NCBI GenBank assembly: GCA_965237415.1 | Contig: CBDEFM010000002.1 | Span: 480,001 to 544,000, forward strand | DNA from: Alphaproteobacteria bacterium | Lineage (GTDB): Bacteria > Pseudomonadota > Alphaproteobacteria > UBA828 | Length of the DNA stretch: 64,000 bases | Direction: 5' to 3' | The notes under the pieces: generated by a model | What the model was told of the DNA's origin: nothing | The model's database searches: none | What the model saw: only the letters and a program-made list of their open reading frames with translations | Shown: positions 19,700 through 63,046 of the stretch, in pieces | Layout of the letters: every line of letters begins with the position of its first letter | Numbering within the stretch: the stretch's first letter is position 1 | Translations under genes and position numbers: made by a program

Positions 19700-19902
19700 A
19701 GCCCGCATTTCTCATCACGGTCATGGTCTGCGCGCCGCCCTCCGGGTCGCGCCCAGGCGCCCGCCCGCGTCGGGCGCTCCGCGCGCGTCCCGCGCGACGT
19801 CGCGGGCCTCAACCGTAGCAGCGCTACGCTTTTCGGCCCACTCCTAGCGGCTCGAACGCCTGGACGCGACGCAGGCCGTGACCGTGATGAGAATTGCGGG
19901 CT
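19700..19902. mobile_element. MITE-like non-coding element with 33-bp terminal inverted repeats
   Basis: 19700-19732 vs reverse complement of 19870-19902 match at 30/33; internal palindrome CGTAGCAGCGCTACG; no credible ORF. Confidence 0.75.
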
Positions 19903-21321: not shown

Positions 21322-22146
21322 ATGCCCAAGCACCTTTCCGCGGAGGCCGTTGAACGCTACGAGCGCGACGGCTTCTACTTCCCAATTCAGGTGATTTCAC
21401 CGGCAGAGGCGCGGGCGATCCGCGCCGATGTCGAGGTTGCCGAGCGGTACTTCGCCAAGCAAGGGGAGCGGATACGGCACCGGCCCCATCTGCTGGTGAC
21501 GGCGCTCGACCGCCTGATCCGCAACGAGACGGTGCTGGACGCAGTCGAGGACCTGATCGGCCCCAACATCCTGTGCTGGACCTCGCTGTTCTTCACCAAG
21601 GACGCGCACGATCCGGCCTTTGTCTCCTGGCACCAGGATTCGACCTACTGGGGCCTCAGTACTGCCGAGGTGGTGACCGCCTGGATCGCGCTCTCGCCCA
21701 GCACGGTCGAGTCGGGGGCCATGCGGTTTGCCCCCAGCACCCACAAGCTGGACCAGATCGCGCACCGCGACACCTTCGACGAGCACAACATGCTCACGCG
21801 TGGCCAAATCGTCGAGCATGAGGTGGACGAGGCCGAGGCGGTCGATGTCGTGCTACAGCCCGGCGAAGCCTCGTTACACCATGTGCGCCTGATTCACGGC
21901 TCCGGTCCCAACAACTCCGACGACCGGCGCATCGGCTTCGCCACCCGCTACATTCCGACCCATGTGCGCAACGTCGTCGGCCGCGACTACGCGGCGCTTG
22001 TGCGCGGGGTCGACGAGTACGGCTACTTCGATAGCGAGCGCCGGCCCGCGCGCGATATGGAGCCCGAGGCGCTGGCCGCTTACGAGGCTGCGAACGCGAG
22101 CCACAACGCGGTGCTTTACGCGGGCGCGGCCCAGATGCGGGGCTAA
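21322..22146 (+). CDS. Phytanoyl-CoA dioxygenase (PhyH) family Fe(II)/2OG dioxygenase
   Basis: WHQD (HxD), TAWIAL, HGSGPN..DDRRIG; GAGGAG RBS. Confidence 0.9.
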   Translation: MPKHLSAEAVERYERDGFYFPIQVISPAEARAIRADVEVAERYFAKQGERIRHRPHLLVTALDRLIRNETVLDAVEDLIGPNILCWTSLFFTKDAHDPAFVSWHQDSTYWGLSTAEVVTAWIALSPSTVESGAMRFAPSTHKLDQIAHRDTFDEHNMLTRGQIVEHEVDEAEAVDVVLQPGEASLHHVRLIHGSGPNNSDDRRIGFATRYIPTHVRNVVGRDYAALVRGVDEYGYFDSERRPARDMEPEALAAYEAANASHNAVLYAGAAQMRG

Positions 22147-22386
22147 GCCCGTCCCTCTCGACGGAGCATGGTGCGGTGCACGGCACGCGGCATCCGAGCC
22201 AAAGTTGCGCTATGGAACGAGAGAGTGCGCGGAGTACGGCAAGTGGCGGAGGCAGGTTGAGGGGGCGAGTGTCGGCGGCGCGGCTGCCGCCTGTCCCGAA
22301 GAATCCCACTTATCCCACTTAATCCCACTTAATCCCGCTAAGGAATTGAGTCTCGGCGGGTTGGTGGGGGGCGAGACGACGGGAGG
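22146..22386. repeat. Degenerate copy of the intergenic element at 33185-33528 (opposite orientation) with decamer tandem array at 22302-22336
   Basis: Shares CATGG.GCGGTGCACGGC, TGTCCCG..GAATCCCA.TTATCCCACTTAATCCCACTTAATCCC and GCGAGACG..CGGG blocks; boundaries approximate. Confidence 0.7.
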
Positions 22387-22463
22387 CGAAGCCGCGCCGC
22401 ATTGCGCTTTGTCGCAGCCTTGGGCATAAACGCGGCGCGGTCGATCGGTGCGAGGCTTCGGTT

Positions 22464-31591: not shown

Positions 31592-31776
31592 GGGTCGCCT
31601 CCGTGCTCTCGTTCGCTTTCGGTAGGCGCCGACATACCCCGTGGCCGCCGCCCGCGCCATAGCGCCGGAGCCCATTTCCAAGCACTCGGGCGGAGGTGAA
31701 GGCATGTCATTGGCCGGGCGCGGAACGTGCCGGTATGGTCTGCTCCGATCGCGCACCGAGTCGCCCGGGGGACGTC

Positions 31777-33186
31777 GTGCATGGACTCGCGGAATCGCTC
31801 GCCGTCTATTTCGAGCGGCGGATGGCCCGCATCCTCCTTCTCGGGATCATCAGCGGCTTCCCCTGGGTCCTCATCGGGAGCAGCCTCACTCTCTGGCTGA
31901 CGGAGGACGGCCTCAGCCGCAGCACGATCGGCTGGGCCGGCCTCATCTTCGGCGTCTACGCGTTCAACTTTCTCTGGGCCCCGCTCATCGATCGTGTCCG
32001 GCTGCCGTGGCTTTCGCAGCGACTCGGCCAGCGGCGTGCCTGGATTCTCGTCCTTCAGGCCGCAGTGCTGGTGTGTCTCGTCATGTGGAGCGCGTTGGAC
32101 CCTTCCGAAAGCCTCGGTTCCGTCATTGCCGTCGGCCTCGCCATCGCCGTTGCCTCCGCGACTCAGGACATCGCCATCGACGCGCTCCGAATCGAGCAGA
32201 TCGGGAAGACGGAGGGCGAGGCGATGGCCGCCGGTGCTGCCGTTGCTGTCGTAGGCTGGTGGAGCGGCTTCAAGCTCGGCGGCATCGTCGCTCTGGAAAC
32301 GGCCGAGGGGTTCCAGAACGCAGGCATCGAGAACTACTGGCAGGCGACGTTTCTCGTGCTGGGCATCGTAGTCGTCCTCTGCAACGTCGGCCTCCTGTTC
32401 GTCCGCGAGGCCGCCTCGACGGAGCGTATCGCCGCCCAGGCCGAGGATGAGGAGCGAATCGCCGCCCGCCTGCGCATGTCCGGCCCGCTCGGGCGTGCCA
32501 CCGCCTGGCTCGGCGGCACGGCCGTGGCCCCCCTGATGCGCTTTTTCGTGAAGAACGGGGTCGCGATTGCCGCCGCGGTGCTGGGCTTCGTCTTCCTGTT
32601 CAAGATCGGCGAAGCCTTCATGGGGCGCATGTCGCTCGTCTTCTACACGGAGATTGGCTTCACCAAGTCGGACATCGCGCTCTACTCCAAGGGCCTCGGC
32701 TGGATCGTTACCGTGGCGTTCACGGTGCTGGGCGGCCTCGTCGCGATCCGGATCGGCCTTGTGCGGGCCATGTTCGTCTCCGGGATCGCCATGGCGCTCA
32801 CCAATCTCATGTTCGCCCTGCTGGCGTGGTCCGGAAAGTCGGAGGTGCTGTTCGCGGCGGCGGTCGTGATGGACGACCTCACGAGCGCGTTCGCAACGGT
32901 CACCTTCGTCGCCTTCATCTCGATGCTGGTGGACAGGACCTATACCGCCACCCAGTACGCGCTGCTCGCCTCGCTCGGCACTGCGGGCCGGACGCTCCTC
33001 GCCGCCTCCTCCGGCGAGTTGGTGGACTGGCTGGAGGGCGATTGGGGAACCTTCTTTGTGATCACGACGCTAATGGTGTTGCCCTCTCTGGTGTGCCTCT
33101 GGGCGATCCGCGCGAAGCTCCGCGACCTGCTGGCCGGCGTGCGGGTACGGCTGGTGGGAAAGGACGCGGAAGACGCGCCCGGCTAG
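31777..33186 (+). CDS. ampG: AmpG family muropeptide MFS permease
   Basis: LLGIISGFP, FLWAPLIDR, SATQDIAIDALRIE, YTATQYALL. Confidence 0.88.
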   Translation: MHGLAESLAVYFERRMARILLLGIISGFPWVLIGSSLTLWLTEDGLSRSTIGWAGLIFGVYAFNFLWAPLIDRVRLPWLSQRLGQRRAWILVLQAAVLVCLVMWSALDPSESLGSVIAVGLAIAVASATQDIAIDALRIEQIGKTEGEAMAAGAAVAVVGWWSGFKLGGIVALETAEGFQNAGIENYWQATFLVLGIVVVLCNVGLLFVREAASTERIAAQAEDEERIAARLRMSGPLGRATAWLGGTAVAPLMRFFVKNGVAIAAAVLGFVFLFKIGEAFMGRMSLVFYTEIGFTKSDIALYSKGLGWIVTVAFTVLGGLVAIRIGLVRAMFVSGIAMALTNLMFALLAWSGKSEVLFAAAVVMDDLTSAFATVTFVAFISMLVDRTYTATQYALLASLGTAGRTLLAASSGELVDWLEGDWGTFFVITTLMVLPSLVCLWAIRAKLRDLLAGVRVRLVGKDAEDAPG

Positions 33187-33528
33187 CCCGCACGTCTCGC
33201 CTCGGTCGCGGTCCGGCTCCCCGTTCCGCCTCGGGCAAGATTAATTGTTGTGCGGGATTCGCCGGGATTAAGTGGGATTAAGTGGGATAAATGGGATTCC
33301 GCGGGACAAGGTCGGGCACGCCGCGTCGCGCGTGCCTGAGTCGCGCACGCCTGAAAGGTCGTGCGCGCGGTACATAGGATCACGCGCGCCCGCATACTCC
33401 ACCTTCCGTGGCCTGCTCGCTCTCGCACTGCATGACCTATCCTGGCGCAGAAGCCCGGCGCCGTGCACCGCTCCATGGTCCGGGAAGTGGGGAGGGGGAG
33501 GCCCGGACCGTCATGAGAATTCCGGGCC
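33185..33528. mobile_element. Long MITE-like element with degenerate TIRs and internal (GGGATTAAGT)n array at 33264-33298
   Basis: Left end 23/33 and right end 26/33 identical to the TIRs of the 19700-19902 element; begins in the CTAG of the ampG stop codon. Confidence 0.65.

Positions 33529-62968: not shown

Positions 62969-63046
<78 letters not shown>

Follow-up and report, generated by a model that had tools for sequence, protein, structure and literature searches.

A row of short GGGAT repeats lies at 33264-33298 (+) of a 64,000-nucleotide stretch of alphaproteobacterial DNA, here called the window. It raised the question of what such an array is for. The first-pass annotation had described it as a telomere-like array with a canonical G-quadruplex (G4) pattern, under selection either as a G4/i-motif switch or as a phased binding array. 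The 35-mer reads GGGATTAAGT GGGATTAAGT GGGATAAAT GGGAT, and a second 35-mer on the minus strand (22336-22302) reads GGGATTAAGT GGGATTAAGT GGGATAAGT GGGAT. The two were identical at 34 of 35 positions, with A at 33291 against G as the sole difference, as had been reported. The window lies in genome G000 (4.75 Mb, 66.7% G+C), which agreed with the description of AT-rich loops within a GC-rich genome; G003, G004, G005, G006, G009, G011, G018, G019 and G020 are congener genomes. We found that the arrays were the best-conserved part of a dispersed element family confined to one genus of uncultured Alphaproteobacteria. Their association with a gene of the Phage_Mu_Gp27/small-terminase (TerS) type, or with a remnant of it, was obligatory, and four array types were matched to four protein clades. 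We favoured, with moderate confidence, the reading that the repeats are binding sites for a terminase-like protein, set in a row in phase with the DNA helix and spread by transposition of the kind seen in MITEs (miniature inverted-repeat transposable elements). The descriptive part alone (the element family, its anatomy and the gene link) was considered highly secure.

Both arrays in the window extended beyond the 35-mers.

33254..33307, plus strand: full repeat array of copy 1, 54 bp, with six cores starting at 33254, 33264, 33274, 33284, 33293 and 33303
33254..33307, plus strand: units of this array, GGGATTCGCC GGGATTAAGT GGGATTAAGT GGGATAAAT GGGATTCCGC GGGAC, within which 33264-33298 is the first 35-mer
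22288..22336, minus strand: array of copy 2, with five cores, GGGATTAAGT GGGATTAAGT GGGATAAGT GGGATTCTTC GGGAC, within which 22302-22336 is the second 35-mer

Chance was ruled out for the motif because shuffles and a reversed control fell far below the observed counts. With up to three mismatches, the 15-mer GGGATTAAGTGGGAT had five matches in the window, where 0.58 would be expected, and none of 100 shuffles gave as many. With up to two mismatches it had 122 matches in G000, against 0 for the reversed pattern. Arrays were then defined across G000 as chains of at least three GGGAY cores spaced 8-11 bp. This gave 67 arrays with 3-13 cores each, 35 on the plus strand and 32 on the minus strand. 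The motif was thus present as first described, but the arrays were longer and there were 67 of them instead of two. The repeats were 10 bp long, sometimes 9 bp, and among 276 units GGGATTAAGT was counted 100 times, GGGATAAGT 59 times and GGGATTCGCC 36 times. Arrays opened with GGGATTCGCC and closed with GGGATTCCGC GGGAC. Long arrays (e.g. C2:1251369-1251462 and 2810506-2810630) grew chiefly by 9-bp GGGATAAGT units, with one C-strand frame kept open. In four sequencing runs, all consisting of contigs, array bins reached 100-200 times the flank depth in the DNA runs.

Some familiar repeats could be set aside at this stage. The label "telomere-like" was without support because every copy was internal and intergenic, and a telomere was dropped for this reason. 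Iterons and DnaA boxes were dropped on account of the roughly 70 dispersed copies and the wrong unit length. CtrA sites have the spacing TTAA-N7-TTAA; the spacing here was TTAA-N6-TTAA, and they were dropped as well.

On the G strand, a typical copy consisted of module U, an AT-rich patch, the array, variable GC-rich hairpins, module D and sometimes a reverse-complement outer U. Module U, (TAG/TAA/TGA)CCCGCATTTCTCGCCACGGTCGCGGTCCGGTTCCGC..CCCACCTCGGGC, was present in about 25-30 copies. Its inner core occurred 31 times in G000 and stood upstream of 25/67 arrays at a looser threshold. The AT-rich patch had the family consensus AACTTAATTTTnAnGC. The module D core, GCACCGCACCATGGTCCGG, was located 80-650 bp downstream of 60/67 arrays, and order and orientation were fixed. 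Around each array, repetitive DNA spanned about -80 to +200-400. The remaining parts of the two window copies were as follows.

33184..33186, plus strand: TAG stop of the upstream MFS-transporter gene (31735-33186; PF07690 MFS_1), whose TA is the putative target abutted by the left end
33186..33236, plus strand: module U; the outer ~25 bp (RCCCGCAYNTCTCGCC...) are the left terminal inverted repeat, and the inner GGTCGCGGTCCGG..CCTCGGGC is specific to array-bearing elements
33237..33253, plus strand: AT-rich spacer AAGATTAATTGTTGTGC, from the conservation profile
33308..33399, plus strand: variable filler of GC-rich hairpins resembling repetitive extragenic palindromes (REP), e.g. GTCGCGCACGCCTGAAAGGTCGTGCGCGCGG; missing from the orthologous G004 element, and DNA contigs skip 32-150 bp here
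33400..33483, minus strand: module D, remnant of the 5' region of a Gp27-like gene, with the D core GCACCGCTCCATGGTCCGG at 33465-33483, a possible ribosome-binding site and a few codons
33431-33433 (CAT), minus strand: vestigial ATG of the copy 1 module D
33484..33527, plus strand: right terminal inverted repeat, an imperfect reverse complement of outer U (...GGACCGTCATGAGAATTCCGGGC), followed by CA instead of TA
22147..22230, plus strand: module D of copy 2 (the G strand of this element is the minus strand of the window), with the D core at 22161-22179 on that G strand and an ATG at 22212-22214 (+) that opens a reading frame MERESAR...
22147-22160: degenerate right end of copy 2
22144..22146, plus strand: TAA stop of a PhyH-family gene (21322-22146), abutted by the right end of copy 2

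On the other side of copy 2 (about 22337-22400), no recognisable U terminus was found. The flanks of the two window copies were strongly diverged with many indels, except for the D core, where 17 of 19 positions matched. The same tendency was observed in the family. Mean pairwise identity was 0.57 over the 50 nt beside the D core and 0.44 in the AT-rich patch, against 0.93 over the first 25 nt of the array, a value that is partly circular since arrays were picked by their own GGGAY cores. The expectation that the core is better conserved than its flanks was thus confirmed, with this circularity in mind. The hairpin repeats at 33308-33399 and downstream of most arrays were of at least two types, with stems GCGCACG/CGTGCGC and CGCCCGCG/CGCGGGCG and a CCTGAAAGGT loop. 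Tandem hairpins were not equal in number from copy to copy, nor between G000 and G004 at the same locus. Gene overlap was absent for 62/67 arrays, with genes taken from a GC-frame caller. Spacers between convergent genes held 28/67 arrays, compared to 221/1,215 in the background of intergenic spacers >150 bp.

The link to a gene was given by the longer loci. About a dozen array loci continued into a longer low-copy repeat encoding a Phage_Mu_Gp27-family protein. The gene stood between D and the array, or just beyond D, in 10 loci of G000. Read on the gene strand, the full unit was module D (5' region and ATG), a gene of ~190-250 amino acids (aa), the array and the AT-rich patch. PF11985 (Phage_Mu_Gp27) was matched at E = 6.9e-24 and 4.2e-23 by two copies of group 2, and at 6.8e-10 and 1.9e-6 by two copies of group 1. 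The bit scores were 83-86 for group 2 and 29-40 for group 1, with a cut-off of 28. PHROG 426, "terminase small subunit", was matched at 8.8e-26. All 10/10 PF11985 matches of G000 stood 48-557 bp from an array, with the 3' end toward it. In the four group-2 copies the ATG was inside module D. In the six group-1 copies the gene was ~470-560 bp from the array, and a second D was located at the gene's own 5' end. The group-1 proteins examined (L034, L035, L036) had in common an insertion of ~12 residues in the predicted helix-turn-helix (HTH; …GDGDRSPLIPRARRCARARPAEGRW…) and much lower PF11985 scores. Reading frames were open in nearly all of the ~125 PF11985 matches and three had a stop, which is weak evidence at this G+C.

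Since the array adjoins this gene, we considered whether it is simply coding sequence. It would then be the C-terminal tail of the Gp27-like protein or of small open reading frames (ORFs) (...ESHLSHLIPLNPGES...), with the 9-bp units as in-frame expansions. In the three translated group-2 copies no stop interrupted the frame within the array, and a 60-79-aa ORF started from the D-borne ATG in 26/55 short elements. Among the seven of these listed, five read the array in the same frame, and the extra units were mostly 9 bp. However, all six frames are closed by three 10-bp TTAAGT units in succession, the small ORFs were not conserved in their N-terminal parts, and at 67% G+C chance alone often gives long open frames. 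The group-1 genes stopped ~260 bp before the array, and the Pfam domain ended well before it. We regarded a coding role as extremely improbable.

The protein was also modelled. An AlphaFold model from a 9-row alignment had a mean pLDDT of 76. It contained a three-helix N-terminal HTH (residues 21-70, block-mean pLDDT 90-95) followed by a long helical hairpin, with helices at 24-35, 40-49, 56-115 (60 residues) and 123-156. An N-terminal HTH followed by long helices is the layout of small terminases. An oligomer prediction with four copies of residues 16-160 scored 0.14 against a mark of 0.42 and was evidence neither way. In a Mu-like phage, the homologue is followed by a 519-aa protein and a DUF935 portal. 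The Gp27-like genes at the annotated loci did not lie in a head-morphogenesis module beside TerL and portal. All six annotated gene-bearing loci had housekeeping neighbours, including COQ9 with HemN and RNase PH, purine-nucleoside phosphorylase with FolB, and sucCD-sucA. One of the six adjoined integrases. The housekeeping neighbours, set against the phage-module position of the homologue, indicated a terminase-small-subunit-like gene living alone. A search of the plasmid collection with the protein gave no match, and a search of the phage collection gave only two weak DUF3486 matches. As a separate observation, three tandem tyrosine-integrase genes (Arm-DNA-bind_3 and Phage_integrase) were located beside one Gp27-like copy (C2:3847337-3850915), and this locus may be an integration hot spot.

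The distribution of array and gene was then compared across relatives. The 15-mer with at most one mismatch was present in 16/20 congeners, at 0 to ~117 matches per genome; in other genera, single one-mismatch matches occurred in 3/20 genomes. The PF11985 gene was found in 17/20 congeners with up to 15 matches (10 in G000). It was found in 0/9 genomes of other genera in the family or order, and one prophage-like match occurred among 11 genomes of the class. The three gene-less congeners had 2, 1 and 0 array matches. In a species-level genome collection, the protein relatives came from metagenome-assembled genomes (MAGs) titled Alphaproteobacteria bacterium, Rhodospirillales bacterium and Defluviicoccus sp. 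Among 63 gene copies examined, most genus-clade copies carried a GGGAT-core chain 46-96 bp past the domain, and five distant prophage-type homologues carried none. A second array type with a 10-bp period (unit CATGCCCGGA / GTCCGGGCAT) was observed 200-300 bp from Gp27-like genes in several congeners, sometimes beside a GGGAT-type array. Its sites in relatives were L066:952-992, L081, L080, and L040:1211-1229 and 2136-2156.

In two sister species the core itself was replaced. GGGATTAAGT had one match in G019 and 0 in G020. Instead, GAGACAAAGY had 23 matches in G019, 18 in G020 and 0 in G000, and GGCCCAAAGT had 9, 41 and 1, respectively. These loci had the architecture of G000, with the AT-rich patch, the array and a near-identical D core, and the 5-nt core was GAGAY, GGYCC or GGCAC. 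The D core stood at 146-363 bp in 12 of 14 short loci (two had no D-like match) and at 713-814 bp in four gene-bearing loci. In a maximum-likelihood tree of 24 copies, the proteins grouped by array type and not by genome. The GAGAY-linked copy of G020 grouped with that of G019 (99/99), the two GGYCC-linked copies of G020 grouped together (98/93), and so did the two GGCAC-linked copies of G019 (100/100). All 12 GGGAT-labelled rows fell in one clade (83/86), together with one G018 copy in which no array was detected. The predicted recognition helix read CSRSAVGRY, CSRSAVVRY, CSRAAVGRY or CSRSAV[N/A]RY by clade. The 10-bp period, the AAGT spacer and the D core were fixed while the core was replaced in every unit, which argued for function. 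In G000 itself, two arrays (C2:780639-780678 and 2949439-2949478) switched from GGGAT to GGCAC/GGCTC units (…GGGATATAGC GGCACAGAGT GGCACATCGC…). These were similar to G019 arrays of the GGCAC type, as would be seen if one specificity had been joined to another.

The replacement of the core bears directly on the idea that the array is selected as an intramolecular G4 on the G strand, or as an i-motif on the C strand, and acts as a structural switch. The canonical G3-N(1-7) pattern was indeed present, with at least four G3 runs and 6-7-nt loops in 66/67 arrays and cores 9-10 bp apart. The arrays made up 73 of the 393 canonical G4 motifs in G000, and in the GGYCC arrays of G020 the opposite strand would carry one G3 run per 10 nt. 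However, the G-runs were not kept in the homologous arrays of the sister species. The GAGAY arrays of G019 and G020 had no G-run in the same place and architecture, and that strand had no G3 run in GGYCC or GGCAC arrays either. The A and T that follow GGG were as invariant as the Gs (1.00 and 0.99 at positions 4 and 5), although this is partly circular as cores were set as GGGA[TC]. The ViennaRNA G4 term gave only -1.3 kcal/mol for the 35-mer with 7/7/6-nt loops, and the full array preferred a hairpin of -11.6 kcal/mol, both with RNA parameters. No replication-strand bias was found (25 leading vs 36 lagging, p = 0.2), and the arrays had no fixed orientation to neighbouring genes. Since a whole GAGAY lineage lacks the G-run, we judged a G4 role very unlikely. 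The G-run is most likely a by-product of the recognition sequence, and the G4 framing should be dropped. Of the two options in the first-pass annotation, the switch was not supported, and the phased binding array became the favoured reading. For annotation, this means that the family accounts for 19% of the G4 motif calls of G000 as a repeat by-product.

The proposal that a small mobile element spreads the array was supported by inverted terminal repeats, a TA flank and presence or absence between species. Copy 1 was a complete 342-bp element (33186-33527; 340 bp from CCCG to CGGG) with both inverted ends. At the same site in G004 the element was present with ~95% identical flanks, an array one unit shorter and ~100 bp of hairpins missing; beyond 33527 the flank was again nearly identical between G000 and G004. 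In G005 and G003 copy 1 was absent, the two genes were ~125 bp apart, and the TAG was already present (read in G005). Copy 1 was flanked by TA on the left and CA on the right, and the empty sites were too diverged for an exact before/after comparison. The U terminal motif with at most three mismatches occurred 93 times in G000, against 3 for the reversed control. The triplet outside the termini (n=166, at most four mismatches) was TAG in 81 cases, TAA in 17 and TGA in 6. U-bounded pairs without an array clustered at 262-264 bp, a wider MITE family sharing the ~25-bp ends. Flanks read YTA/R...Y/TAR, and among the pairs listed the terminal bases were complementary in 13/14 pairs of 262-290 bp. 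The complementary bases would fit a 2-bp TA duplication inside YTAR. Such a duplication, with a CTAG/TA target, is the signature of IS630/Tc1 elements. As the ends abut TA inside YTAR, the elements are placed on TAG/TAA stop codons in a 67% G+C genome. CTAG was eight-fold under-represented in G000 (1,854 vs 14,642 expected). A called co-oriented stop codon was abutted exactly by 22/93 U termini, compared to 857/27,254 (3%) of all TAA/TAG.

Most copies were short. The 55 short units had a median length of 364 bp, 120 bp of which was padding, and aligned with the gene-bearing unit solely at its two ends, the array end and the D end, the latter with the 5' region, the ATG and a few codons. As judged from this pattern, about 57/67 copies are internal-deletion derivatives of the gene-bearing unit. 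Two further observations concern other insertions. The window carried a 199-bp array-less MITE with U termini at 19702-19900 (C2:499702-499900), CCCGCATTTCTCATCACGG...GATGAGAATTGCGGG, with flanks CCAG/CTAA. A 1,190-bp insertion sequence (IS) of the IS630 family, whose ends differed from U, had 5 copies in G000 that were 96-99.9% identical, with TAGTCAYCTGG termini and CTAG/TA flanks (C2:3623890, 3662495, 3755729, 1591157 and C1:409831). Several of them lay in a 200-kb stretch (C2 3.62-3.82 Mb) together with other DDE_3 genes. One lone weak U match was located ~500 bp outside the IS at C1:409831.

If the elements are mobile, the array could serve the element alone. It would be a subterminal repeat for a transposase or accessory factor, or a neutral slippage-prone repeat on a MITE, with the Gp27-like gene as cargo. 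The array started 67-70 bp inside the left inverted repeat in about 15 copies. The unit number ranged from 3 to 13 and differed between G000 and G004 at one locus, as slippage would give, and weak constraint on the protein would suit cargo. The co-variation of gene and array can also be explained by linkage. However, MITEs of ~263 bp with the same termini had no array, which meant that the termini function in its absence. Of the 67 arrays, 28 were without any U terminus, yet 60 kept module D. The array was on one side only and was the best-conserved part of the element (0.93 vs 0.44-0.57), and its 10-bp period survived four changes of core sequence. We considered this explanation possible though not probable.

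A role in RNA was weighed in the same manner. The array would be transcribed from a promoter in module D (AUCCC repeats) or within the 3' untranslated region of the upstream gene (GGGAU), and would bind proteins or stabilise the transcript. From the lost gene, short elements retained the ATG and a putative ribosome-binding site, and 28/67 arrays were directly 3' of a co-oriented gene. Contigs from two metatranscriptome runs of one study carried arrays with many different flanks. However, these RNA-library contigs are strandless and may be carried-over DNA; the zero depth over the upstream gene there is itself no evidence. The orientation to neighbouring genes was mixed overall. The Rfam scan of the window at gathering thresholds gave only a tRNA (62970-63043) and no family on the arrays. 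A strict 10-bp period suits the DNA helix better than an RNA constraint. An RNA role was regarded as improbable.

We returned to the favoured reading of phased protein-binding sites. In the proposed mechanism, there would be one site per turn of B-DNA, read by an oligomeric HTH protein encoded alongside, much as a small terminase reads pac. According to PMC4737164, the HTH motifs in TerS rings are about one helical turn apart, which matches the 10-bp repeat. The gene-less copies would be non-autonomous sites served in trans. Dispersal would occur by MITE-type transposition. The job of the complex might be a packaging entry site, a decoy or a part in the element's own spread.

Several results weigh against this reading. 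In the group-1 copies examined, a D core was located between the gene and the array, and adjacency may be secondary. Foldseek against the PDB gave no match at E <= 0.001, and the TerS entries 6v1i, 4xvn, 6ejq and 4dzj appeared only at E 1-4. A wide structure search gave generic helical hairpins only (Z up to 8.5) and no significant small-terminase match. The dN/dS between copies was mostly 0.3-0.7, with two pairs at 1.0 and 1.3, so the protein is loosely constrained. Because gene and array are physically linked, the pairing of protein clades with array types is also predicted by co-inheritance. At least one U terminus was found at 39/67 array loci, and only 10/67 had both; right-end U matches numbered up to ~20, of which about 4 may be chance at the 5-mismatch threshold, as estimated from the reversed control. 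No transposase with matching U termini was found among the 11 DDE_3 loci of G000. Moreover, according to PMC4737164, the isolated SF6 DNA-binding domain shows little specificity for pac repeats, and TerS recognition is accordingly not simply one HTH per repeat.

G000 also contained a possible partner of the protein. A tblastn search with Mu-like phage head proteins found a TerL (37% identity, 442 aa) and a portal (42%, 315 aa) at C2:1226522-1230813. Both (C2:1226465-1230966) were confirmed by PHROGs, Terminase_6C and Portal_Mu (7.1e-87); the Terminase_6N profile search of G000 gave no match. This was the sole Mu-type TerL and portal of G000, and no Gp27-like gene was beside it. Its neighbours were hydantoinase A/B, racemase, rubredoxin and pyruvate carboxylase. 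The block was syntenic at 83-93% identity in most congeners searched. An RTX-repeat gene sat between TerL and portal in G000, and TerL directly abutted the portal in G006, G009 and G011. Portal_Mu was matched in 18/20 congeners, with a single match in 13 and near-identical scores in at least 16, and in 0/20 genomes of other genera. All 17 Gp27-positive congeners had a portal match, that of G020 being partial and with a stop. Among the three Gp27-negative congeners, two had no portal match and one had a fragment.

From these data one could suppose that the genus keeps a vertically inherited, domesticated Mu-type packaging core, the orphan TerL-portal pair between metabolic genes. Its specificity subunit, Gp27/TerS, would have passed to mobile cassettes and split into at least four DNA specificities, with the ~70 arrays as entry sites of the pac kind. 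Host DNA would then be packaged or translocated from starting points throughout the chromosome, in the manner of a gene-transfer agent or lateral transduction, or the arrays would act as a decoy against Mu-like phages. We regarded this proposal as doubtful. No Mu gpT, Mu F or HK97 capsid family was found in G000, an RTX gene is inserted there between TerL and portal, and the portal match of G020 is partial and has a stop. No Mu protease was found in G000 either, in a search that was uninformative as no control genome matched. In addition, because the congeners are kin, the co-occurrence of Gp27 and portal may represent one or two events. Use of the arrays by the conserved orphan TerL-portal pair, if it occurs, would amount to a new way for chromosomal DNA to be mobilised.

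The element family is of interest for specialists in phages and mobile elements. It represents a small-terminase-like gene outside any phage, amplified with its presumed site as MITE-like elements on stop codons, in a genus of wastewater-type Alphaproteobacteria. There is still no settled view of DNA recognition by small terminases. PMC4737164 reports weak, non-specific binding of isolated HTH domains to pac DNA. The present family provides a very simple substrate from nature, perfect 10-bp repeats in four or more core variants that are each paired with a separate protein clade, and specificity-swap experiments would be straightforward here. In a literature search, with most subscription journals outside its scope, no account turned up of a small-terminase-like gene that stands alone, is multi-copy and has been amplified together with a perfectly phased repeat array. 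In that search, small terminase and miniature inverted repeat were co-mentioned only in a phage-satellite work. Among the matches listed for the GGGATTAAGT 10-mer the topics were unrelated; these were presumably primer sequences.

Compared with known systems, the family showed partial likeness to each. It resembled canonical G4 motifs in its pattern (66/67) and differed in that the G-runs were lost in sister species and that the long loops had marginal predicted stability. Like REP and bacterial interspersed mosaic elements, it lay between genes, was over-represented at the 3' ends of genes and formed mosaics with GC-rich hairpins. However, the array units are head-to-tail direct repeats and not palindromic (palindromic units adjoin at 33308-33399), and they are tied to a protein-coding gene remnant. 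The plasmid centromeres parC/ParR and tubC/TubR have short direct repeats at about helical phasing, with a neighbouring gene whose product, a small DNA-binding protein, coats the repeats in a cooperative manner. The phased short direct repeats next to such a gene were alike here. In contrast, no gene for a partition NTPase was observed next to the module, the sites were chromosomal and dispersed, and the protein belongs to the Gp27/TerS family and not to ParR/TubR.

Two systems came closer. MITEs of the IS630/Tc1-mariner type duplicate TA, with the target CTAG/TA. The likeness consisted in the short length (~340 bp for copy 1), inverted repeats, TA in YTAR, no transposase, many copies, presence or absence between genomes, and a typical IS630-family IS with CTAG/TA flanks active in G000. 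The family differed in its one-sided conserved internal array and specific gene remnant; only part of the copies had recognisable termini, and an autonomous partner with U termini was not found among the DDE_3 loci of G000. With the TerS/pac pair (SPP1/SF6 G1P; Mu Gp27 as the sequence relative) it shared membership in the Gp27/"terminase small subunit" profiles, a modelled HTH followed by long helices, and a cis site of direct repeats in or beside the terS gene. In contrast to TerS/pac, the gene was solitary and multi-copy (10 in G000 and up to 15 in congeners) with housekeeping neighbours and no terL beside it. The repeats were far more regular than described pac sites, and most sites were gene-less and scattered at about 70 chromosomal places. 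One defining feature of each of these two families was thus missing, because there was no adjacent terL and no autonomous partner was found. By analogy, the family would work like a TerS-pac pair or a plasmid centromere array and move like a TA-duplicating MITE.

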